From assembly GCA_008632985.1 (NCBI GenBank), contig QPGO01000218.1:62001-117546 (forward strand): a DNA stretch of 55,546 nucleotides. Direction: 5' to 3'. Below the pieces are notes generated by a model. The model had not been told where the DNA came from and searched no databases. It saw only the letters and a list, made by a program, of their open reading frames with translations. Source of the DNA: Psammoneis japonica (Eukaryota). Below, in pieces: positions 22,764 through 55,546 of the stretch. Numbering within the stretch: the first letter of the stretch is position 1; the number at the start of each line of letters is the position of its first letter. The translations under genes were made by a program, and so were the position numbers.

Positions 22764-23864
22764 CGTGGTACCACCTCCAATTTAGCGGTTGGCTCTTGCC
22801 ATTTGCTATTGTATCATTTTGCAGAACCCTTGAGAATCCACGAAGGCAAAGAAAAGATCCAGCATAGTACCACCCACCCACCCCTCCTCGCACGACCTAC
22901 AGACTGCAGACACCCAGCCACCGGCCGCATCTTGAAGAATCTCACGAAGGCCTAAACTTGTGCTTTTCGCTAACTTGCCGTCATCAATCAAAGAGTCTAT
23001 CACAAGCGTTAGAAGTCGCCTAAAGCTCATCGAGTTGAATACAATGGCTATCCAGCAGTTCCTCACATCCAGCCACGGTTACATAATGAGTAGGATTTGT
23101 ACAGTAGAATTCGTTGAAACACACTGTACGACGTCAGCAAGAACATCTGTTACACTTGGCAGTAGATCGAGATATGAGGCGTCATAGTCGTACAAACGTC
23201 GTATAGTCGTAGTGGGTAGAACCGACTTCAACTACGAGATACATCATCGCACATTGAACTTCCACAAGATGTCGTTCCCGCTGACGTTCATAACCTCACC
23301 GGTGTGATGCCGCTGCTGTTAGCAGCACATCCCAATGTAGAACGCACGAGCGAACGATGACGTGTCAAGTAAATCGAGACGAGCGATCTACAACGTGTCG
23401 GGTCCGTCAATCATGCACGGAAGTTTGCTTCAACCCTCATTTTTCATGAGATCTGAACTTTTGCAAAGGAAGACTCTCCAGCCATCTCGACACAAAGCAT
23501 CGCCAGTTGCAGCTGAGACAACATCTGCGGGGACCAGAATGCACTGGTCGCAGAGTCTGCAGAGACCGGGAAACACCGGTTGCAGATTTGTCATTTCGCA
23601 TTCATTGTCATTCATTGCACTCTTGACACACTGAAGATTCATTGCACACACTCGTCCAGAAAACACTGGAAGTGGACCCTGCAGTGACTGGGAACACCAG
23701 TTGCAGGTCGGATCATCTGCCATCTGTTGATCATGTTGACTTTACTCAGATTGTTCTCATTGCAAGTCTCATGGGTCGTCGTGTTATCTGGTGTGCACCT
23801 GTTGCTGCGTTGTTGGCTCAACTTGTCTTTGCGCAGTGTGAGCCTGCCGTTGCAAGCTGTCTCA

Positions 23865-24632
23865 TGGATGACAGCAACACCAGGCACCGAGACAACACAA
23901 ACAGACGTTTTGAGAAGCTTCATTGCAGGAATGGAAACGAGCACGTCTCTTGGGTTTGTTTGGTGTGTGACAGATTGTCAAAACCGTCTCAGACTGCTCG
24001 ACTTTCTGTCAATGGATTGAATGAAGCCAGACACCTGTCAACTCCATCTGAATGGAACCAAGTGTCGGAAGACCTGCAAGATTGTCATCGCATCGATGAC
24101 GACCATGTTCCACGGGATTGCCGATGGATTTCCAACCTGTCACTTTCACCAAGAGCTCGACATGTTGTTCCGAACGACAACAGAAGGTCTGAAGGATTCA
24201 CTTGTTGCAGGCCTTGTAAAAGAAGTCTCTGCACTGCTTCTATGTCTTGTGGATGACAGCAACACCAGGCACCGAGACAATGTAAACAGACGTTTTGAGA
24301 AGCTTCATTGCAGGAATGGAAACGAGCACGTCCCTTGGGTTTGTCAGGTGTGTGACAGTTTGTTAAAACTGTCTCAGACCACTCGACTTTCCATCAATGG
24401 ATTGAATGAAGCCAGACACCTGTCAACTCCATCTGAATGGAACCAAGCATCGGAAGACCCACACGATTGTTGTCGCATCGATGACGACCACATTCCACGG
24501 GATTGCCGATGGATTTCCAACCTGCCACTTTCGCCAAGAGCTCGACACATTGTTCCGAACGACAACAGAAGGTCTGAAGGATTCACTTGTTGCAGGCCTT
24601 GCAAAAGAAGTCTCTGCACTGCTTCTGTGCCT
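23865..24632 (+). repeat. 385-bp tandem duplication within the Helitron (23865-24249 and 24250-24632)
   Basis: Both copies start tggatgacagcaacaccaggcaccgagac and align throughout, with about 15 differing sites. Confidence 0.97.
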
Positions 24633-27600
24633 CCGTGCGCAATGGCAAATGATTGCTGTTTTGGAACACCACCACCTGAATTATCGTGTCTTACCGAAGC
24701 AGAACTAGCTTCATCGACACCTGTGAAAACACATGGCTGCTGCTTCAGTTTTGTCGGTGGCAAACAGAAGAAACTGCAAGGTGGTCTTTCCCATTGCAAG
24801 ATAAACACAAAGAGCATCGCCCGCACCATTGTGCACTTTGACGTGTTGAACCTTCATCAAAATGTGGTTGTGTTGGCATCCGGCAAAATGACACCAGAGC
24901 AAAGGCGAATGGCCAGACAAAAGAACAAAATCAGGACTCACCATGTAATGAGAGCACTAGAATGGCTTGTCCATCACCACGAGAATTGGATGAATCAAGA
25001 CATCGATCTAGAGGAAGTGCGAAGTAATTTACAGAATCCAGTTTTAGTGGACAATGGCAGTTTAGACGAAAGCGAAAATGCAAACATTGAAACCACGGAG
25101 TCCCACAGTGTTCATTTCCCCGATGGCACCGTTTCTTCAACAACTGGTGGACAACGTAATTTAGACAGCTTCAAAGACTTGGTGCACGATGCAGCTGCAA
25201 GCGGTTTTGACATTGAATTCAAAGCTGATCTTTTGAAAGAATCAGTCAGTGACTTTAAGGACAACAACCTGGCAAATGCTTGCTTGCTGCAATTTCCTTG
25301 TGGGCGTGGCGGCATTGATGAAACAAGAATGAAAGAAGACGGGAGTCTCGCCGACTGTGCAAATCTAGCACATTGCGCAGATCACTTGGCCCGCATTTCT
25401 CAGCCCCATTTCCACAAGCAACTCTTTGTTCTGACCCTGTGCAATCTGACTGTGAAGCAACGAATGGTGCACAGTGCTGGATGGAAAGCAAGAGACAAAA
25501 ATCAAGCCAGACAATTCTCAAATGAACTGACACAAGACGACATCGACAGACCGGTGAACGCAGGAATTGCACATTGGGACATCGTTTCTTAAGTGCAGTG
25601 GATGTGGTGTCGGCATCTGTTCCACATGCAAATGAAGCAGCAAAAAAAATGAGAAGAAATGCTGAAACCTGCCAACACCACTTTGGACAACCTGGAGCAT
25701 TTTTAACGACAAGCCCCGATGATGCCAATTCCTTTTTAGTTCAAATTCACACGGACATGCTCATCGACAAAGGCAGAGATGTGACAGAAATGTCGGATGA
25801 AGAATTGGCCGAAAAGGCCAAGGCAAGAAACGAGCTTCGTGTGGAGCACCCGGGTGTCACGGCTTTTGCATTCGAAATGTCATTGGAAATCGTCACAGAA
25901 GAAGCAACAGGATGGGACTTAAAAAGGAATTCACCCAGAGAAGATTTTGAATTCTACGTGGGGAGACCCTCCGCTTTCATAGCTGCAATGGAAGAACAAG
26001 GTAGACTCTCGGCACACGGTCACATTCAGGCATGGTTTGAAGACACAAACACAGCAAGAGACAATCTGCATTCTGACAACAGAGATTTTAGGCGTGATGG
26101 TAAAAGAACACTGTCCAAACTGACCAGTCGGATCTGCACAACTGGGTTGATGTGCAGCGAGGATTGCACTCGACTGTCCATCATAGAGACTTTTGATCAT
26201 GATTGCACTGTTAATCTTGCCTGTCGTGCTGTGCCTAAAATGGTCAGCAATCAGCAGCTTCGATGCCCAAGGCACAAGCACGGTCAGAAATCAAAAAACG
26301 GCATGTTCGCGCATTGCCCTCATTGTGCTAAATGCTGGACAAACCCAGAGTTTGTGGCATGTTATTTGTTGAGTGACAACCGCGTCCCTGGTCTGACTGC
26401 TTGTCCAGACAACACAACAAAGAGACTTGAAGCCATGTGCACTCAGTGTCAACAATCCGATGAGAATGGGACAATCGAGCCATGCACTCCAGATGCTGCA
26501 TGCAGCCATCACATGCATGCCAACATCGCTTGTTTTTCTAAGCTGAAACAATTTCCAAAAAATGGAAAAAATTCCGAGAATGAAATGACCACTGGTGGAA
26601 GCGCGCGCAAGCGTAAATTGCACGAGATGCAAAATGCCGATTGCCGTTTCAATCTCCCCGCTGCACACAGCAAATGCAATGTAATCAGGAAAGCTCATGA
26701 TGCAAAAATTAAGTGGTTCTCTTGGGATGGCTCATTCCGTTGTAGATGCGTCAAAGAAATTGTCCCCAAGAGGAGAAAATGCGATGCTTTCCAGAATGTG
26801 TCGTGCCCTGCAATCAGCAGATCTAAGCTGACATGCAACACAAACATCGCAACTCTGATGCCAGGCCCCTCTGCACAGTGCACCATTGAGCACACACTCA
26901 AAGACACCCAAAAGGACGACACTGCCACTTGCCAAGAAGTGCTGAATGTCACTGACAAACTGGTGACAGAGCTTAGAAAGCATTCTTCTGATGCAGCGGA
27001 AACTGTAAGAAGATTGCTCTGGAGTGCTCATGCTCACAACAAAACCAACGTCATCAGACCGCCGCTTGCATCGTGCATTGCAAGAAACAGTGGGCGTTTT
27101 CTAACTTCTCATCAAACTGCATGGTGTCCACTCAAAGACATCACAAACATGCTAGAGAACGAAACAGTGTCTGCAATGGTTTCGCATTTCGGGGAGACTC
27201 CGTTCTGTCAATGTTTGGCCTTACATTGTTTGTGTCGACCCACACAAATGGAACATCTGAGTCCGTTTGTGTTCTGCAGAGCCCAAGTCTTCCACTTTCA
27301 AAGCCTGTTTAAAGGACCCAACCCAACAGATGACAGCTGAGGAAAAAGAGAAACACATGCTCGGACTGAAAGTGGCCCAACTGCCATTCACAATGAACAA
27401 TGCGACTGCAGGACACAAGCTTCAAGGAAGCGGTGTCGACAATGTGTTTGTGCACAGCTGGAGCTGTGCACAAAACTGGGCACATGTCATGCTCTCCAGG
27501 GTTGAGACCAGAAATGGTCTGCATCTTTGGCAACCGCTGAAGAGAGATTTAAGTCTGTGCAGACTGCCGGACGGGCATGACGCCCTGCTCCGGTTGATGG

Positions 27601-27662
27601 AAGGAAGAAGTGTCACATGCTTCACCAACGAACAGCATGATGACATTTTGCAGTCCAATTGA
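23865..27662 (+). mobile_element. Decayed Helitron-like RepHel element (DUF6570-like region, HUH Rep, C-terminal Pif1 helicase fragment)
   Basis: Motifs LSPRAR...MANDCCFGTPPPELSCLTEAE, LLQFPCGRGG, FGQPGAFLTTSPDD, EEQGRLSAHGHI (HUH), CRFNLP, degenerate motif 3 QCTIEHTLK, and Pif1 end NATAGHKLQG...AHVMLSRVETRNGL. Termini not identified. Confidence 0.85.
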
Positions 27663-28461
27663 CAAATGGAACATTTTGATGCTGCATGTGGGAATTGTTT
27701 CTACATTTTGGAAAATGTTCCAGGCTTCACACGCGGGCTTGCAGGCGTGCCCGGCAACAACCGACAGAAAACAAAGGGTCCAATCTAATGAATCGGTGTT
27801 GGCACATTGTTGCAATGATGGACACACTCAGCAACCAGTGATGCACAACGTTGGGACAGTTCTCTTGTCATCCACCATAGAACGATCACACCAGAATCAT
27901 CAAAAAGGGGAAACCCACGTCTCTTCTTGTGACACATCCATGCACGAACACAAAAATTAAATCGCCATTTTTTGACACAACATTGGAACATTGATGTAGA
28001 ATCACGTCGCACATTAATTGATTGCGAACCCATCATTCAAGCGTGTGAATTTTTTAAAAAATGATTGGTGGCAAGTAAAGATCAAAGCTCTAAAATTTGA
28101 TGCTCGCGCGCATGGCAATCCAAACCAGCCCGGGTTCCACACCTCCTCACTTCGTGTCCAGAGTTCCCACCACAAAGGAGGAACCAACATGAGCCAATCT
28201 AGAGAGTTGCGCATCCGAAGGCAGCATGTGTAATTCTGGAGCACATGAGTCTTCGATGGCATTTAGACAAATGGCAACTCTAGGCGCACACCGTGTTGCA
28301 TCTAAGAAACTGTGACAAATTTTTGAGCTTTAACAACAGCCACACGTCCCGCTCTCCGCTCATCAATTCCGCGGCAGACTGTCATTTCGCCATGCCCCAA
28401 GTCGGAAATGAATCTTCAAACGAAGTCCCGGAACTTTCAACTCACAATGTGTCACATGCAG

Positions 28462-28875
28462 TTGGGGCTCACAAGAGATTTCAAGAAAGATTTTCGCTTT
28501 TTTTGAAAACCAGCCCTTGTCTTTCTTGTGGTCAATCACTTCACTGCACTTGGTTGGTGGTTCTGCGGAAAGATTCATTCCTTCTAACTTGATCTTTTTT
28601 GAACCGATTTCGTCATCCAATCCACAATCGTCATCCATCACCTTGACATGAAGGACCATGTTGTCGAGGCCAGGAATGTCTTCAAAAGTGAACGTTTCAC
28701 CGCACTCAGGATTCAAGTCGTTCTCCTTCTTGCTGGAAGTCTTCTTGCCGTATCCCTTGTCAAACAACATGTTGTCCTGCTCGAGTTCAAACTTTACATG
28801 TGGATCAGACTTTCCAATTTTGTCGGCATCGCGAAGGTCTGTGATCTTGTCGAGAAGGACGGTTGGCACGCCCAT
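28462..28875 (-). pseudogene. C2-domain protein gene, mutated by TA->TG/CA changes (probable stop loss)
   Basis: MGVPTVLLDKITDLRDADKIGKSDPHVKF...NDLNPECGETFTF...VKVMDDD..DDEIG is a C2 fold with the canonical DPYV read as DPHV. The probable original stop TAA now reads CAA at 28462-28464. Confidence 0.75.
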
Positions 28876-29295
28876 GGTTGCAATGTCTTTTGAACTCGCA
28901 TGCCAAGCTCTTCCCGTTTCGGTTGCTCTTGCTTTGCTCTCGGTTTGTATTATGGTTATGGTCGCTGGTGTCTGGTGTCGCCAAAAATGAACGGGAATCA
29001 TCAATCTAAAAATCTCACAAAAGATCGCGATCCTTTTGGCGGGAAACGCAATTGATTGTGTATATAATTTATGTACAAGAATGAAGATTTCATTACGTGG
29101 ATACTCATAAGAATTAAAACATTCAGCACTGAATAGTAAATACAAACTGAAAGAAACTGCTTTTTCGCCTTTCTCGCTCATTTCTCCAAAAATGTTGGCG
29201 GAAAGGTGGTCGAATTTGTTTTTGCATTATTCTGGATTTTTGATCTGGCTTGTCCTTCCTGTCGCATTCCCATCTCTCACCATTATTTGCGCATC

Positions 29296-30030: not shown

Positions 30031-31572
30031 TCATAGCAACCCGCTATAATCGGCTCCCATGTATGCAGTGACGGTTTTGAGTCGGCCGTTGAGTGAATTC
30101 TCTTCCAACTTTATGTTTCCCCGAAAGCCTGCTGCGAGAGCCGCTTGTCCCAACGATTCTTTATTAGCGTTTCTCGGTAAATCATAAACAACGAGTCGAC
30201 TTTTTGTAGCACGCGCCGCAAGCTTTAGGAGATCAAGTCCGTTGATGAAATCACTTCCCCACCCATCCGCAACTTCATCCTTGGGCGTAAACTTTTTTTG
30301 AGTCGGTGGACCAGACGAGAATGTGTCGAAAAAATCGTCTCCAACGCCTCCATGAAGATCGTTTTGGAGTTGTTCGTCCTGCTCGCTCTCTTCTGGAACG
30401 CCAATATTTGACCCGACACAAATCTTCATATGCTTTTCCAGATCATAACCGTCCTTTCCGAGAGTGTTGTAGTCGACGCCGCCCCACGGCGGATCCATGA
30501 ACACTGCGTCGATGCGATCGGGTAAGAGATCCAACCCTCCAATTGGATATCCTTCGTGTATTTCCATTTCGGCTTGTGCTCGTCCAGCTTTTGGCTCGCA
30601 TGCTTCTTTTACTCTATCGCCATTCCTGTAGCAGTGCTCCATAATATGCATGGTACTGCATTCCACGAAAATGATCTTGTCTTTTGGAATGTCGTAGACC
30701 GCGGCATTGTGAGCCGCCATTCTGAGCTTTTCTCTATCTACGTCTACTGATACGACCAATGAAATGAGTTCACGCGATAGCTTCCCAAACGCAATTGAGT
30801 TTCCTCCACATCCGCAGAAAGCATCCAATACCACAATGCCTTGGGTGTTGCTTATGTCCGATCCTGGCAAGCCTCTACGAAAGGCGGTGGAATTGCTCAA
30901 CTCACCCACTCGAGAGGCTACATGATGCGCAATAACCTGAGGTGTGACAGAGAACCATCCCTCGGCATCCAACTGAATCCCCTGATCAAATCTTGAAAAA
31001 AGCCTTCGACGCTGCGCCCAGTACTTATCATGCACTACATCAGGGTGCGGATTGGCAATGGAATTATCCACCACCTGCGACTCACATACTGACCAACGGA
31101 GAGTGTCGTTCCCGTCCATCTGGAGCGTATGCTCTCCAGTGGACCGGGGAGCTCTAAGAACGGCAACGGATTGCTCTCTCGAAGAATCGTCGTCAACGAC
31201 CGGAACCCAGCAAGAAACGTCTGGTGCAAAGTGATATGGGGCAACATGGAAATGTCTATGGTTTGAATGCTCGTCTCTGTTGTTGTGAGCGTGTCCTTCA
31301 CCGGGAGCCCTTGCCGGAATGTCCCACAGTTCAACTCGTTGTGTGATAACTGTCATGTCCGCGTGTGCCTTGTTTCGTTTGCCCTGTTGGTGACCTCTGT
31401 GTTGCCGATTCGGATTCTGCACGCCTCCTCCTTTGTTGCGTTGCGGTGATTTCTTATTCCTAGCCCTATTATTTTTGCGCCGTCGATTGTTGTTGCTAGA
31501 CTTTGAGCCTCCACCAGCACCACCACCTGGAGCTAAGCGAGGCGGACTTTTGCCATTGCTATCAGAACTCAT
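30031..31572 (-). CDS. TGS1: Trimethylguanosine synthase (snRNA cap hypermethylase)
   Basis: KYWAQRRRLFSRFDQGIQLDAEGWFSVTP, VLDAFCGCGGNSIAF, VFMDPPWGG and LPRN. Start taken as MSSDSNGK. Confidence 0.93.
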   Translation of the reverse strand: MSSDSNGKSPPRLAPGGGAGGGSKSSNNNRRRKNNRARNKKSPQRNKGGGVQNPNRQHRGHQQGKRNKAHADMTVITQRVELWDIPARAPGEGHAHNNRDEHSNHRHFHVAPYHFAPDVSCWVPVVDDDSSREQSVAVLRAPRSTGEHTLQMDGNDTLRWSVCESQVVDNSIANPHPDVVHDKYWAQRRRLFSRFDQGIQLDAEGWFSVTPQVIAHHVASRVGELSNSTAFRRGLPGSDISNTQGIVVLDAFCGCGGNSIAFGKLSRELISLVVSVDVDREKLRMAAHNAAVYDIPKDKIIFVECSTMHIMEHCYRNGDRVKEACEPKAGRAQAEMEIHEGYPIGGLDLLPDRIDAVFMDPPWGGVDYNTLGKDGYDLEKHMKICVGSNIGVPEESEQDEQLQNDLHGGVGDDFFDTFSSGPPTQKKFTPKDEVADGWGSDFINGLDLLKLAARATKSRLVVYDLPRNANKESLGQAALAAGFRGNIKLEENSLNGRLKTVTAYMGADYSGLL

Positions 31573-31689
31573 CTTGCTTAGGACTCGCTTCCCTTTGTCA
31601 TTGTCGTGATATGTACCGCATTGAGATATGAGAAAAAAAAAGTACAGTATCAACGCACGTGTCTGGCCGTCGTTTACGTCACGAAAGAC

Positions 31690-33330
31690 AACGAGCAAGA
31701 ACATCATGACATGCATGCTGTCAACTCTTGGTGTCGGTGGCATGGTCGCGCTGCGACTCTCCCGGCACTGCAGCTGTGCTCACATTTGGGGAAATAGCAT
31801 GATTTTCTGAATTTCACTGTGGTGAAAATTGACAAGCACGCAACAAGCATGGTGGTGCACCAGGGTTTTGTTTCCTTGTCGCCCTCCCTCCTCGATGTTG
31901 CCTTCGTGCACACATCAAAGGCCAGGTGCTGCACCTTGGTGCAGAGCATGTTTTTGAGAACAGGACAAGCTGCCATCATGGGCAGATTGTCTGCACAAAC
32001 TGTTTTTGTTGCTTTGAACATGGGGGGCACTGCAAAAGGGGGCCCTTTTCTTTGACACTTTGTGGCTGTTTCTGAGAGTGCACATGCGGCGGGAAATGGC
32101 AACCACACACGCAACTTCTTGCACTGTCATTTCACTTGCAAAAATTCTCTTGCTGTTGTTGAGCAAAACAGTGCATTGTCTCTCTCAGTTTGGCCAGAGT
32201 TTGAGAAGAGGAGCTTGGTTCCCAGCTTCCAGGCTCTTTTGTCTGTGGCTTGAGTTGTCATCAAAGATTGACAAAAGTGCTGAACAGCAACCTCCACCTC
32301 ACTGCTGGGGTGCTGTTGGGGCACCACTTGCACAATGGCCCTGTGTGTGCAAAAGAGAACACCCCCAGAGAGAGAGACATGTTTGTTTTGTGGGCAGCCA
32401 AAGGAGAGGTTGTTGTGGCAGCAGGTTCACAAGAAAGCCAGCTGTCTTTGGGTTGATCAAGCTGCATTATTTTTGTCAGCAAGTGCCACACCATGATGTG
32501 TGTGCAGAAGGCTTGCAGCTCTGTGCACACAGCGTTGCAGAGAAAACTCTCAGCACTGCTGCACAAGTTTTTTGGCTGTGTTGTGCATGATGTGATTTTT
32601 GCAAATTCCCTCAACCTGAATGCTGATGCACATGTGCATGTAGTGCAGCACATTTTACACAACAACCAGCAGCCCACACAACTGTCAGCAAACACAGCAG
32701 GGGCAAAAGTTGTTGGCTCACCGAGAGGGGCAGGCCTCTGCTCCTGCCTCCTGCATCTGACTCAACCACCAGCACATGAGCCAATGGCACCGATGAAGTG
32801 AACAAACACTGATGCAGTAGAAAGGACACGCCAACACCTTCTTGTGGATAAGAGTGAGTGTAACAAAGCCAACGTGAACCCAATCGTTGCGCCTTGGTGC
32901 ATGAGATGCAGGCCTCTGCTCCTGCCTCCTGCGTCTGACTCAACCAGCACATGAGCCAATGGCACCGATGAAGTGAACAAACACTGATGCAGTAGAAAGG
33001 GCAAGCCAACACCTTCTTGTGGATAAGAGTGAGTGCAATGAAGCCAACGTGAACCCAATCGTTGCACCATGGTGCATGAGATGCAGGCCTCTGCTCCTCC
33101 TGCCTCCTGTGTCTCTGACTCAACCAGCACACGAGCCAATGGCACCGATGAAGTGAACAAACACTGATGCAGTAGAAAGGACAAGCCAACACCTTCTTGT
33201 GGATAAGAGTGAGTGTAATAAAGCCAACGTGAACCTAATCGTTGCGCCTTGGTGCATGAGATGCACCAACAAGGGTGGTGAGAATGACACGGTCACACAA
33301 GTGACGAGGGACAGACCACTGCTGGACCAC
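31690..33330. repeat. TpA-depleted degenerate repeat or TE remnant between TGS1 and the next gene
   Basis: Abrupt loss of TA, TG/CA-rich sequence, Cys/His-rich spurious ORFs. Contains a tandem array. Confidence 0.7.
32730..33265. repeat. Three tandem copies of a ~177-bp unit (starts 32730, 32908, 33083)
   Basis: The unit gcaggcctctgctcc...gagccaatggcaccgatgaagtgaacaaacactgatgcagtagaaagg...ggtgcatgagat occurs three times. Confidence 0.97.
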
Positions 33331-33455
33331 CCATTAATTTTTTGTCTCGTTCCTGGGGGGCGGAAGGGGTGAGGGGTGCAAAACAAAAAGGAAGAAGCGA
33401 TACTGTAGATAGAGTTACCATAGTTATCGATCAAGCCCCACTGGTGTCACTCGAA

Positions 33456-34772
33456 ATGGCCAAGGGCACCGCTAAGAAACGCCGTCAAGGCGAGACATGG
33501 ACTGGAGCGGATCATGCAACGCGCAAGGCGACCCAACAAGTCAAACGATCGACGGTCATGTCGTACAAGGATCGACGAGAGGCAGTCCTGGCTCGTGGCT
33601 CTCGTGACAAGATTGATGCTGGCAAACTAAGACTGCACATTTCCAAGACACAACGTGAGGTGGATCGTTTGCGAGAAAGACTTAGAGCTTGGGATGACGT
33701 GGAGGAGGAGAAAGAAAGATTGTTTCAGCTTGAAAAAGAGAAAAATCAAATAGCGGAAGAACCGTCAAAGAAAAAGAAGCGTGGACGACTTGGACCGGAA
33801 ACTTGGAAGCTGCGAGGAGCCGCACGTCCCGCGTGGGAAGTTTATGATTTTGACACTCGTTACAAAGACCCACACTTAGTAGAGCATGAAGAACACCAAC
33901 AAAAGTGTGCAAGAAGCAGAAATATACTTGTACTCTATAAGGGAAGACTCGGACAAGAAAATGTTGATGGCTTACCGCAGCCGCAAGGGAGAAAATATTT
34001 GGCGCTCTTGATGCAGCTGGGGATGTTGTGTCTGCAGGCAAAGAAATTCAAGGCTGCTCGGGGGACGTTCTTGGAATGCATGGATTTGGACGGTGCGGAT
34101 TCTCCCATTACCACAGCTCGATGCCAGCTTATGCGAATGTATATGGAAGCAAATCGACCAGACTCGGCACGGCGGTTGTGGGAGCGACTGCCCGACACGG
34201 ACTCTTCTGTGTGGATCCGATATTCCGCAGCACTTGTGGAATTCGTCAGTTGGAAGCTACTACAGGAAGAAGGCAGTACCAAGGAGAGCGCAGAAAAGCT
34301 TCTGGCAATGGCAATTCGTGCCAATGTCTTTTGCGCATATTACATTGCGCACCATGAAACATTCGAACGTGTAATGGAATACACAGAAGAAATCCAGGAC
34401 GCACCGGAAGATACGCTCGAAGAAGCTGTTGAATACTGTTGCAGTGAGCAAATGGGGGCCTGGGTCGGTACCGAAGGTGCGATCGAATGGCTTCGACAGA
34501 TTATCCTTCAGACTCTCAATGACGTGCCAAGTAGTCTGGATGGCATTGGTAGTGCTCTCACCGTTCAGGATTTGGATTGGAATAGTAAGCTAAAGAAAAT
34601 GGAGGATAATTTCGAGGCATCAGCGAAGGCAGCCACCGAGCAAGAAGCATCGAGAGGAACGGAGGACGAGGAGAGCGAGGAGCTAGACTTGTTAATGTAT
34701 ACAGGGATGTTTCGCACTGCAATGGACATGCTTGAAGACGCTGGTGCTTTTGTCGACGATTTGCGGCGGTAG
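33456..34772 (+). CDS. Uncharacterised protein with a basic/coiled-coil N-terminus and a TPR-like helical region
   Basis: Long clean ORF of normal composition starting MAKGTAKKRR. The LMQLGMLCLQAKKFKAARGTFLECMDLD segment looks like TPR helices. Confidence 0.75.
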   Translation: MAKGTAKKRRQGETWTGADHATRKATQQVKRSTVMSYKDRREAVLARGSRDKIDAGKLRLHISKTQREVDRLRERLRAWDDVEEEKERLFQLEKEKNQIAEEPSKKKKRGRLGPETWKLRGAARPAWEVYDFDTRYKDPHLVEHEEHQQKCARSRNILVLYKGRLGQENVDGLPQPQGRKYLALLMQLGMLCLQAKKFKAARGTFLECMDLDGADSPITTARCQLMRMYMEANRPDSARRLWERLPDTDSSVWIRYSAALVEFVSWKLLQEEGSTKESAEKLLAMAIRANVFCAYYIAHHETFERVMEYTEEIQDAPEDTLEEAVEYCCSEQMGAWVGTEGAIEWLRQIILQTLNDVPSSLDGIGSALTVQDLDWNSKLKKMEDNFEASAKAATEQEASRGTEDEESEELDLLMYTGMFRTAMDMLEDAGAFVDDLRR

Positions 34773-52699: not shown

Positions 52700-55546
52700 A
52701 GCCAGTGCCTCAAGATGGAGCAATCTTTTTATCCTGAAGACAAGAAGAGTTGCACCCACACAATCAATGTCAAGAACTGCAACCAGCGGGGAGTCTGCTC
52801 CAAGTGTGTCAAATTCTTGAAGACTTGCCATTGATGCTTGGTTGGCCAGAACATGCAAAAGCAAGCCAACAAGTTCCATCTGATGCAATCAATGAAAAAC
52901 AGCAAGTTTCCAAGTGCATCAAATTCTTGAAGACTTGCTGTCAACTTTTGGATGGACAAAATGTGCAGAAGCAAGCCAACAAGTTCCATCTGATGCACAT
53001 GTTGTTGCAGGAGATGCTCTCCAAGTTTTTGAGAACAAGGCTGCAAAAACACATTTGCTTCAAAGAGGCAAAGACGCCTTTGAAAAATGCCTGTGTTTCC
53101 TTTCCAACCATGTTTCCCCCAAAGAGTGCACTTCAAAATCAGAAACGGCATCTGTGGCATGATCTCAAGAAGCCATCAGAGACCATGAAGATCTGCAAAG
53201 CTGCCACTTGGACTCAGGAAGGAATGAACAAATGTCTCAAGTTCCACCCTCTTTTTGTGCCAAAGCAGAATCTAGAGGACAAAGATGAGCTTGAGAACAT
53301 TGTCTGCAACCTTGCACCTCATTGATGGTGCTGTCAGTCAAGCTCACAAGGTCTGGAAGTTCACATTTGACTGGACTAATGTCAAATCTGATCACAACAG
53401 CAAGGCTGGGTTAAAGTCAAAGATGGGCTCAATTGCAGCTCCAAAAATGGTTGCCAATCTGGTGCCGAACATTCTGATTCCAAGATGTGGTTCAATCATT
53501 GCACATGGGCCACTCATGACATGGATCAATGTTGGGTTGATGGAAGACTGGCAAACTGATGCTGAGAGAACTTTGAACAAAACCCAAAACAGCAATGTTC
53601 AAATGGCAATTGCAGGTGGTCTTGCATTGTGACACTGAAAATGCCTTTCCAAAGGAAGAGTTGAATGCCATGATCACTCAGCCAGTCAACAAAACCCTCA
53701 AGACAAGTTCCTTGACATGTGACAAAAAGCACAAGGGCAGACATTCTGACTGTGATGCACTTGGCAAAGAAAACTTCCAATTTGAGTGCAAATGATGCAC
53801 AGTTGTTTTGAAAAATGACCAGCTTCTGTTGAGGAGTCTTGCACATGACTGGATGTCAGCAAGCCCAGAAAAGGCCAAAGCAACTCACACAGGTCCAGCA
53901 GTCATTGCTCACATGAACCCCTCTTTGAGAAAAGAGAGGGGTGAGACTCTGCATGTTCTTCTTGATGGTGAAACATCATCAACTGCAATTTTGTGCAAAT
54001 TCACGTGGAAATTGAGAACCAAAGAATCTGCCACCAAGACTTGGAAAACCAAGGGTGGACTCTTTGCAACTGACAGCAAATGCAAAATGCAGTTCTTGTC
54101 ACCTGAATTTGACAAGCACAAGCCCATTGACAAGACAACACATGCTCATGGCATGCCCTCTTCTTCGTGTTGATGTGATGTGATCATGGGACACAACCTG
54201 ATGAGCAGTCTTGGAGTCACACTCAGCTCCACAAATGTGATTAGAAGATGCTGTTGTGCCAACAAAGAATGTTGGCACTTTCTTTGATGCTGATGTCTTC
54301 AAGCTGATTGCCAACCACATTGAAGAGTCTGGTGCTGTGAATGGTCTCAATGGCAAGACCAATGGCACCAGGATCCTTGATGCCAACTGTCATGCTGGCA
54401 ACCTCATTGATGTGGCTGACAGCCACAGAGTCACATCTCACCCCAGGAGAACAGAAGCAACTGAACTCTCTTTTAAAAAGATTTGAAAAGCTTTTTGACA
54501 GTTCCTCAGGTGTGTGGAAAGGAAAACCAGCAGATCTCATGTTGAAATTGGGCATGACTCCACATGATTTGGAGCCATTTCCCACACCACAAGCCTTGGA
54601 GGCAACTGCTTGAAAGGAAGCAGGCAGACTCTGTGAAGCAGGAGTCTCAAAGAAAAAAAATGGACCACTCTGAATGGGCAGCTCCAACCTTTGTTCAACC
54701 CAGGAAAAATGATCAAGTTCGGTTCCCACCCAACTTTTAAAGAGCTGAGAGGGAGGCTGATGTGCACTCCACACCCTTTGCCCAATGTTTGGGATGCACT
54801 GCAGAAACTTGAAGGTTTCATGCATGTGACCTCATTTGATTTGACCACGAGATGCTGTCACATCAAGCTGACATGGGGTGCATGTGTCATTTGTGCATGA
54901 TGGTGATGCTGCAGGGCAAATGTGAATGTTGCAGACTCCTTGTGAGAATTTCCCCCCATCATTTTTTGAGAACACATGGGCAAACTCATGGCAGGTTTAG
55001 AGTTTGTCAAAACTTGCTGTGTTGATGTCATGCTGTGCCTGACAAAAAGTGACTTCAAAGATCAACTCCAGAAACTTGAGGAGACATTCACATGGCTCAA
55101 ACAAGCCAGTTTGAAGGTCAGTTCCAAGAAGTCCTTTTCAGCTGAGCATGATGCAGACTGTCCAGGCTTTCATGTCACCCAAAATGGTGTTGCACCACCC
55201 CCCATGAAAGTGGGGGCAATTCAAGCAACTGCAACTCCCAAAACTCACAAGGAGCTGCAATGTTTTGTTTGTGTGGTCAATTGTTGTCAAGACATGTGGC
55301 CTCAACAATCTCATGCACTTGCTCTCCTCTTGCCAAACTCACCCAAACAAAGGTTGAGTGGCAATGGATGAGCACGGAACAAAAAGCTTTCAAAAATGTG
55401 AAGAGTTGTGTCAAAGGACGTGTCATCATCACACCCAAATTTTGACAAACTCTTTGAGCAGTGTGCCAAAGGAAAAAAATTCTAAACTGGGAGCAGTCAC
55501 ATCACAAAACAATCAACCTGTTGCTTTCCACCGCTGCAGGTTAAAT
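52700..55546 (+). mobile_element. Decayed Ty3/Gypsy LTR retrotransposon (gag-protease-RT-start of RNase H), running off the window end
   Basis: gag-like FPPKSALQNQKRHL..LKKP; protease LHVLLDGETSS...WKTKGGLFAT...PEF; RT SEWAAPTF, PHPLPNVWDALQKLEGFMHVTSFDLTTRCCHIKL and LMAGLEFVKTCCVDV; RNase H start LGAVTSQNNQPVAF. Confidence 0.88.
52801..52997 (+). repeat. 110-bp-period tandem duplication in the gag region
   Basis: caagtg..tcaaattcttgaagacttgc...aagcaagccaacaagttccatctgatgca occurs at 52801 and 52911. Confidence 0.9.

Follow-up and report, generated by a model that had tools for sequence, protein, structure and literature searches.

Conversion of both two-tyrosine motif codons in a Helitron-type Rep relic of Psammoneis japonica within a tract depleted of TpA

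The two catalytic tyrosines (Y2) of Helitron Rep proteins form covalent 5'-phosphotyrosine links, and the locus described here raises the question of how a Rep gene came to carry a cysteine codon and a histidine codon in their place. It lies in a 55,546-nucleotide stretch of contig QPGO01000218.1 from Psammoneis japonica (the window; all positions refer to it), where one copy of a multicopy Helitron-like element occupies approximately positions 23391 to 28343. Our conclusion is that this is very probably a RepHel transposase gene copy, now dead and shortened by an internal deletion, that was hit after arrival by tract-wide A:T-to-G:C transitions at TpA steps, with a preference for 5'-TAY-3', and that both Y2 tyrosines were converted by these transitions.

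On the plus strand, positions 26876 to 26902 read cag TGC acc att GAG CAC aca ctc aaa (QCTIEHTLK), in frame within a stop-free open reading frame (ORF) of 604 codons (25526 to 27340, plus strand). The original prediction, made from the DNA letters alone, had located the YxxKYxxK motif of a Helitron Rep within positions 26860 to 26920, which do include this stretch, and had read both of its tyrosines as converted, one to Cys and one to His. We aligned the ORF to its relatives without reverting any codon (best E value, 3.4e-143). When the window ORF was set against 36 full-length relatives (alignment A1), the column at Cys452 was Tyr in all 36 relatives, the column at His456 was Tyr in 35, and the column at Glu455 was Lys in 33, while His164, His166, and Lys459 were invariant. 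The relatives' consensus at the motif was Y-x-x-K-Y-x-x-K, as proposed for QCTIEHTLK, and the surroundings aligned without gaps (GPSAQCTIEHTLKDTQKDD in the window copy versus GPVSQYTIKYILKDTQKDD in its closest relative, P0011). A wider query-anchored alignment gave the same picture: the 119 rows covering the first motif position had Tyr in 113, Cys in 4, and His and Ala in 1 each, and the 118 rows covering the second had Tyr in 114, Cys in 3, and Ser in 1. Thus, the profile alignment put the motif at this site and not elsewhere, Tyr rather than Cys or His was the state of the relatives at both positions, and the proposed double conversion was borne out. The copy itself has the motif position on the helix but not the residues of a Y2 enzyme, since Cys452 and His456 have replaced Tyr. 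The features of the motif region are as follows.

26015 to 26023, plus strand: HUH motif (H164-G-H166), kept; invariant in alignment A1 and on strand 162 to 171 of the predicted model.
26879 to 26881, plus strand: first catalytic Tyr position, now TGC (Cys452); Tyr in 36 of 36 relatives; on predicted helix 448 to 457.
26888 to 26890, plus strand: motif Lys position, now GAG (Glu455); Lys in 33 of 36 relatives, the presumed ancestral state.
26891 to 26893, plus strand: second catalytic Tyr position, now CAC (His456); Tyr in 35 of 36 relatives; on predicted helix 448 to 457.
26900 to 26902, plus strand: motif Lys459 (AAA), kept; invariant in alignment A1.

The codons TGC and CAC are each a single transition away from TAC. 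The GAG codon is preceded by T (att gag), so that a change of T|AAG to GAG is possible via TpA to TpG; the Lys-to-Glu change at position 455 is consistent with the same rule, though its context is less favored.

The assignment to a Helitron Rep was supported at the level of the family. An exhaustive protein search with the ORF returned 800 relatives at an E value of 1e-3 or lower, many of them about 1,900 residues long. Residues 22 to 167 matched the Pfam family Helitron_like_N at 36.4 bits (cut-off, 28.9), a match that scored 55 to 61 bits in relatives, and the upstream frame at 24021 to 25592 matched DUF6570 at 54.1 bits. Three full-length relatives had the domain order DUF6570, Helitron_like_N, PIF1, and relatives carried PIF1 with a Walker A motif; this identifies the family as RepHel transposases of the Helitron type. 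Helitron RepHel proteins are classed as two-tyrosine HUH enzymes in a source consulted in part (PMC6213432), and, in the available part of the report on Helraiser, H593/H595 and Y727/Y731 mutants had transposition abolished (PMC4778049). We predicted the structure of the window ORF with alignment A1 as the input alignment, which gave a mean predicted local distance difference test score (pLDDT) of 81.4 and a predicted template modeling score (pTM) of 0.78. The predicted model places the HUH residues on the beta strand at 162 to 171, and residues 452 and 456 one turn apart on the helix at 448 to 457. Helraiser (7lcc_A) ranked first in a Foldseek search, although weakly (E value, 0.018), and in VIA-align it had a Z score of 14.8 and a root mean square deviation (rmsd) of 5.3 over 297 aligned residues, in a chain range (492 to 845) that spans H593/H595 and Y727/Y731. 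The next VIA-align rows had Z scores of 5.8 to 4.1 and were mostly viral HUH Rep nucleases, the second row (5.8) being an HUH Rep. Thus, residues 452 and 456 are the putative equivalents of the Helraiser Y2 pair, and the stretch the two-tyrosine motif of a Helitron-type Rep, on the grounds of predicted fold, conservation, the order of the motifs, and the geometry of the helix. The window family and Helraiser (PDB 7lcc; Grabundzija et al. 2016, PMC4778049, seen in part) have in common an HUH nuclease, then a two-tyrosine motif and a PIF1-like helicase, whereas the window family has an N-terminal DUF6570 and about 150 additional residues between HUH and Y2, and the window copy is without both tyrosines and without the helicase core. 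The region from residue 225 to residue 373 is an insert with invariant columns at H225, C227, C264, C267, H329, H331, C336, and C373 and probably binds zinc.

The motif lies within a tract from which TA dinucleotides have been largely removed. For the repeat structure we used contigs of a public DNA sequencing run, possibly from the window's source sample (run X1). Summed contig depth was 249 to 2614 over 23300 to 28343 and 51 to 87 over 28344 to 29100, and the element is therefore a multicopy repeat; the family depth was about 20 to 40 times the single-copy level. The features concerned are listed here.

23391 to 28343, plus strand: one copy of the multicopy Helitron-like element, ends approximate, from run X1 contig depth; protein matches at 23888 to 27653.
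23400 to 29000: TA-poor tract; left edge sharp at about 23400, right edge gradual, extending into single-copy DNA for about 650 bases after the repeat ends.
23858 to 24632, plus strand: tandem duplication of about 385 bases in the N-terminal coding region (copies 23858 to 24247 and 24243 to 24632; 92% identity over 390 bases).

The left edge of the tract matched the start of the high-depth contig at 23391. The observed/expected ratio of TA was 0.06 to 0.25 in 23501 to 28000 and 0.18 to 0.28 in 28001 to 29000, compared with 0.4 to 0.8 in the flanks and 0.5 to 0.7 in host genes at 30 to 31.8 kb and 33.3 to 34.8 kb, which had 2.1 to 2.4% Tyr. Over 23501 to 28000, TG and CA were at 1.4 to 2.1 and CG was at 0.53 to 0.77. 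The two halves of the tandem duplication differed at 31 positions, which we grouped by inspection into 21 events: TG versus CA at the same step in 9, TA versus TG or CA in 4, CG versus TG or CA in 2, and other changes in 6. The TG-versus-CA differences do not reflect chance; they arose because the same step was hit independently, on either strand, after the duplication. Comparison with other copies of the family pointed in the same direction. Transitions made up 91 of the 92 variant places in run X1, and the 40 places listed yielded 34 classified events, with CA or TG in the window and TA in the other copy in 15 and the reverse in none. The remaining events were TG and CA swapped (6), TG or CA in the window versus CG (5), CG in the window versus CA (2), and other (6). 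At codon 75, the window had CAC and another copy had TAT, and this column was Tyr in 18 of 36 relatives; it is a directly observed Tyr-to-His conversion within the family.

An excess of TG and CA could also come from deamination of methylated CpG alone, with TpA playing no part. CG is low in the tract and nearly gone in a further TA-poor block at 44.5 to 55.5 kb, CG is a conceivable ancestor of a TG-versus-CA difference, and the five events with CG in the other copy are of the type expected. However, TA was depleted far more than CG in the tract, the relatives have Tyr (TAY) and not Arg (CGN) at positions that are Cys or His in the window, the other copies had TA in the 15 events mentioned above, and TAC and TAT were down by 9.7 and 8.6 per kb. 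We consider this explanation very unlikely; CpG sites have decayed too, but as an additional component, slower or separate.

The loss of tyrosine was not limited to the motif. The 604-residue ORF contains 2 Tyr (0.3%), compared with 3.7% over the same columns in the relatives (median, 22 Tyr), and Cys, His, Thr, and Ala were raised. In alignment A1, only 1 of 14 columns with a Tyr majority had kept it in the window copy, the others having been replaced by Cys (8), His (2), Phe (2), or Gln (1), whereas columns with another majority residue were kept in 168 of 234 cases (Fisher P = 1.7e-6). Among columns conserved at 80% or more, Tyr was kept in 0 of 4 and other residues were kept in 88 of 101. 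Ten of the 13 replaced columns were Cys or His with TGY or CAY codons. We followed the coding path of the element by tblastn with relatives P0001 and P0005, which gave the following parts.

24273 to 25562, plus strand: N-terminal region of the transposase, including DUF6570 (P0001 residues 31 to 469); 430 codons without Tyr or stop.
25562 to 27274, plus strand: Rep (HUH nuclease) region (P0001 residues 478 to 1043); 571 codons, 2 of them for Tyr and none a stop.
27274 to 27279, plus strand: breakpoint where P0001 residues 1044 to 1787, the helicase core, have been deleted from within the element.
27279 to 27653, plus strand: C-terminal remnant of a PIF1-like helicase, about 125 residues (P0001 residues 1788 to 1911; P0005 residues 1767 to 1889).

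Along this path (24273 to 25562, 25562 to 27274, and 27279 to 27653) there were 2 Tyr and 0 in-frame stops in 1,126 codons, while nearby host ORFs had 2.1 to 2.9% Tyr. The loss of tyrosine is thus tract-wide and not aimed at the active site. The original prediction had further held that such a mutagen would introduce no stop codons, and the 1,126 stop-free codons agree with this. TAA and TAG occurred at 10.7 and 6.7 per kb in the tract versus 17.0 and 16.3 in host DNA, and TGA at 42.6 versus 37.6. Because a change of TA to TG or CA creates no new in-frame stop and does away with TAA and TAG stops, save those TAA that turn into TGA, a dead gene has been left with three long open frames.

The copy carries other lesions as well. 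A frameshift lies near 25562, the N-terminal part being in frame 3 and the Rep part in frame 2, and only the C-terminal remnant of the fused PIF1-like helicase is left. The contigs of other copies diverged into unlike sequence at 27279/27280, exactly at the deletion of this copy. Two run X1 contigs connected 26150 to 27306 via two other letters, so a second internal deletion, 1,155 bases long and unlike the one seen here, must exist in other family members; three further contigs turned to unlike sequence after 26866, just upstream of the tyrosine motif. The window copy is a relic of the RepHel family and not an active member. Thus, the proposal that a TAY-directed mutagen disables Tyr-dependent transposon enzymes was supported within limits: both catalytic tyrosines are gone, but the copy also has a frameshift and no helicase core, and the loss of tyrosine cannot be assigned as the change that killed the element. 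Helitrons typically begin with 5'-TC, end with CTRR-3' and a subterminal hairpin, and insert between A and T; reading 23280 to 23640 by eye revealed no clear terminus.

A copy already dead by frameshift and deletion, and only 37 to 43% identical to its full-length relatives, might simply have decayed neutrally, with its tyrosines lost by chance among random substitutions. This is extremely unlikely, since conserved columns other than Tyr were mostly retained while those of Tyr were lost, the replacements were predominantly Cys and His with TGY or CAY codons, in-frame stops were absent, the fall in the TA ratio was abrupt on the left, where the repeat ends, and nine of the 21 differences between the duplicate halves were TG versus CA at one step.

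We compared the context of the surviving TA steps with that of host DNA in the window. Among the 53 survivors in the tract, none were RTAY (16.2 expected), 27 were YTAR (9.9 expected), and 26 were of mixed context (26.8 expected); in all five TA-poor tracts of the window, only 2 of 118 survivors were RTAY, with about 36 expected. The contexts of TG, on the product side, retain the identity of the mutated strand, and relative to host DNA they were enriched 1.89-fold for RTGY and 1.71-fold for YTGY but only 1.25-fold for RTGR and 1.02-fold for YTGR. Since RTAY survivors were absent and TGY products were enriched, the main determinant is a pyrimidine 3' of the mutated A (5'-TAY-3'), and the TAY-directed mutagen of the original prediction finds support on both sides of the reaction. 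We also read by eye the 3' neighbors of the 15 sites at which other copies still had TA (7 pyrimidines and 8 purines), but set them aside as a context test; a sample of this kind favors slowly mutating sites and lends no support either way. Every Tyr codon is TAY, and tyrosine is therefore the most exposed residue; a preference for a 3' pyrimidine explains why Tyr suffered more than the TA-containing stops. Both catalytic codons have G before them and, as TAC, would have been G-TAC, which belongs to the RTAY class and is vulnerable on both strands. A signature in which RTAY is the first to go and YTAR the last can help to recognize the footprint of the enzyme and to test candidate deaminases.

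These changes could also have been made on RNA by ADAR-like A-to-G editing and fixed by reverse transcription, and the discussion of a preprint by Mettrop et al., which we know in part, states that ADAR enzymes prefer a 5' U (bioRxiv 10.64898/2026.01.13.699255). We regard this route as extremely improbable: Helitrons move as DNA, the tract extends about 650 bases into the single-copy flank, and each half of the tandem duplication took its own hits, on both strands. These facts point to chromosomal DNA altered in place. That the Cys/His state marks a functional variant or a domesticated Rep, as the long open ORF, the retained HUH motif and most other conserved residues, and the few relatives of normal Tyr content with Cys at one position might suggest, is scarcely credible in a copy with a frameshift, a missing helicase core, and an internal tandem duplication, whose Tyr was lost throughout and not in the motif only, whose open frames are themselves a product of TA erasure, and whose high-depth family consists of copies differing mainly by transitions.

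Several points weigh against a mutated RepHel copy whose Y2 tyrosines were lost to the TpA process. The frameshift and the loss of the helicase core mean that the copy may have been dead or nonautonomous before it lost its tyrosines. The TAC codons at 26879 and 26891 would be the ancestral state as judged from protein relatives, and neither position is among the 40 listed of the 92 run X1 variant places. Cys stands at one motif position in four relatives whose Tyr content is normal (P0030, P0044, P0140, and P0150), although these may be lightly hit copies. A profile of the Rep region (A2) found nothing among PDB sequences at an E value of 10 or lower, and the full-length profile reached Helraiser through the helicase only. 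The spacing from HUH to Y2 is 288 residues here, compared with 134 in Helraiser. Finally, host DNA serves as a stand-in for the ancestral composition of the element in the comparison of contexts.

The sequence of events that we propose for the mutated RepHel copy would begin with the arrival of the element at the locus, after which TpA mutation would have affected both the element itself and, on its right side, some 650 bases of single-copy sequence. A hit on the A of the plus strand would yield TpG, and a hit on the A of the minus strand would yield CpA. In a Tyr codon, a sense-strand hit would thus give Cys (TGY) and an antisense hit His (CAY); the Tyr at 26879 would have become Cys by a plus-strand hit and that at 26891 His by a minus-strand hit. 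Likewise, TAG would become TGG or CAG, and TAA would become CAA or the stop codon TGA. The chemistry was presumably adenine deamination on DNA, and the process was presumably directed at repeats as a defense.

The one published account of a TpA process that we found is the preprint on Bigelowiella natans, in which integrated viral DNA undergoes TpA hypermutation that is almost exclusively A-to-G/T-to-C (Mettrop et al., bioRxiv 10.64898/2026.01.13.699255); in the parts available to us, it likewise infers adenine deamination and a defense role. In both cases the changes are restricted to TpA, the strand hit decides between TpG and CpA, and only certain tracts, of foreign or repeated DNA, are affected. 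In the window, 13 of the 21 duplicate events were TG versus CA or TA versus TG or CA, that is, A:T-to-G:C changes at TpA on either strand, and confinement to the repeat held at the left edge, while the right edge lay about 650 bases past it. In contrast to the mutation accumulation experiment in the chlorarachniophyte, with its giant-virus and virophage inserts, what we see is the fixed footprint left on a DNA transposon, accompanied by partial loss of CpG and by an extension into single-copy sequence. The preprint's main text, as far as it was accessible, does not mention tyrosine, stop codons, diatoms, trinucleotides, context, or flanking DNA. At the level of literature listings, we found no published description of TpA mutation in diatom transposable elements or of a diatom Helitron or RepHel case. 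What the present locus adds is a structurally supported case of Helitron Y2 loss, the TAY/RTAY rule, evidence from a duplication and from multiple copies for action in place after insertion, and long Tyr-free RepHel ORFs in public sets. Repeat-induced point mutation (RIP) of ascomycete fungi also introduces transitions tract by tract in repeated DNA, inactivates transposons, and can leak into unique neighbors. It runs in the opposite direction, however: RIP converts CpA to TpA, makes the DNA richer in AT, and generates stops, whereas here TpA was destroyed, GC content went up, and stops were removed. Since TpA was lost and TG and CA were enriched, we rejected fungal RIP.

A little-known mutation process is thus tied to a concrete loss of function, the residues that cut and join DNA having been removed by the same single-step changes that stripped the element of Tyr. 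A broader reading, which we offer tentatively and consider rather doubtful, is that a repeat-directed DNA adenine mutator preferring 5'-TAY-3' acts as a "tyrosine eraser" that kills enzymes with a Tyr nucleophile and leaves ORFs free of both stops and Tyr. If so, the Tyr codon would be the best coding target of the mutator, and the TAA or TAG stop would be the worst. HUH Rep proteins, and probably also tyrosine recombinases and the YxDD box of reverse transcriptases, would be inactivated, and Tyr counts in long transposon ORFs could map the process over the tree of life. Full-length RepHel proteins without Tyr but with HUH and helicase motifs might then be dominant-negative binders of transposon ends.

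Proteins of this kind were present in public metagenome sets. Among the 150 relatives listed, P0022 (1,355 residues) and P0077 (866 residues) had no Tyr and P0089 had 9 in 1,570 residues. P0155, which clusters with P0022 at 90%, has an open RepHel frame of 1,875 residues without Tyr that retains HUH (HAHILVW) and Walker A (GPGGSGKS). At 34 conserved Tyr columns, it had His in 16 and Cys in 13, and it kept 507 of 633 other conserved columns. Near-identical copies of P0155 differed mostly by Cys versus His (8 of 24, 12 of 28, 4 of 7, and 4 of 10 differences) and then by Met versus Thr. Cys and His codons are two base changes apart, and such an alternation would result if one Tyr codon received independent TA-to-TG and TA-to-CA hits. 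Judging from their protein sequences, P0155, P0022, P0077, and P0089 are probably hypermutated transposon relics; queries with the single proteins P0011 and P0077 confirmed no DNA locus in metagenome contigs. Long "proteins" without Tyr can be artifacts of TA erasure and could mislead family profiles. At the same time, they are a cheap marker for finding the process in other organisms.

Other parts of the window also bore signs of TA loss. From 28344 to 29000, the TA-poor tract enters single-copy DNA (depth, 51 to 87) and an ORF on the minus strand (28363 to 29226) that matches the Pfam C2 domain at 46.1 bits. This ORF has 0 or 1 TA per 108 bases over 28363 to 28902, and its C2 part has a single Tyr and reads SDPHVKF at a position where C2 domains usually have DPY; it looks like a spill-over of hypermutation into a host gene. 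Two contigs (depths, 34.8 and 29.6) covered 28238 to 28447 with 11 letters different and possibly represent two haplotypes. A larger block of 11 kb, from 44501 to the end of the window at 55546, has 36 TA left, 26 of them in a YTAR context, with CG at an observed/expected ratio of about 0.05 to 0.2 and TG and CA at about 2. None of its 73 ORFs of at least 75 residues reached a curated Pfam cut-off, and the block looks like an older, saturated tract. The losses of TA and CG are uncoupled, in that the Helitron tract (23401 to 28000) keeps CG at 0.53 to 0.77 whereas this block has lost both; either the erasure of TA is faster or there are two separate processes. To look for reverse transcriptases, we scanned 87 ORFs around the TA-poor blocks at 31.4 to 33.6 kb and 44.3 to 55.5 kb, and only two flanking host ORFs, those of a cap guanine-N2 methyltransferase and a TPR protein, were above a curated Pfam cut-off; the window thus offered no YxDD box to which the idea could be carried over. 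Short blocks poor in both TA and CG, with no Pfam family recognized in either, are found at 1 to 500 and at 31900 to 33000. The latter lies between the cap guanine-N2 methyltransferase-like gene (30034 to 31779, minus strand) and the TPR gene (33288 to 34769, plus strand).

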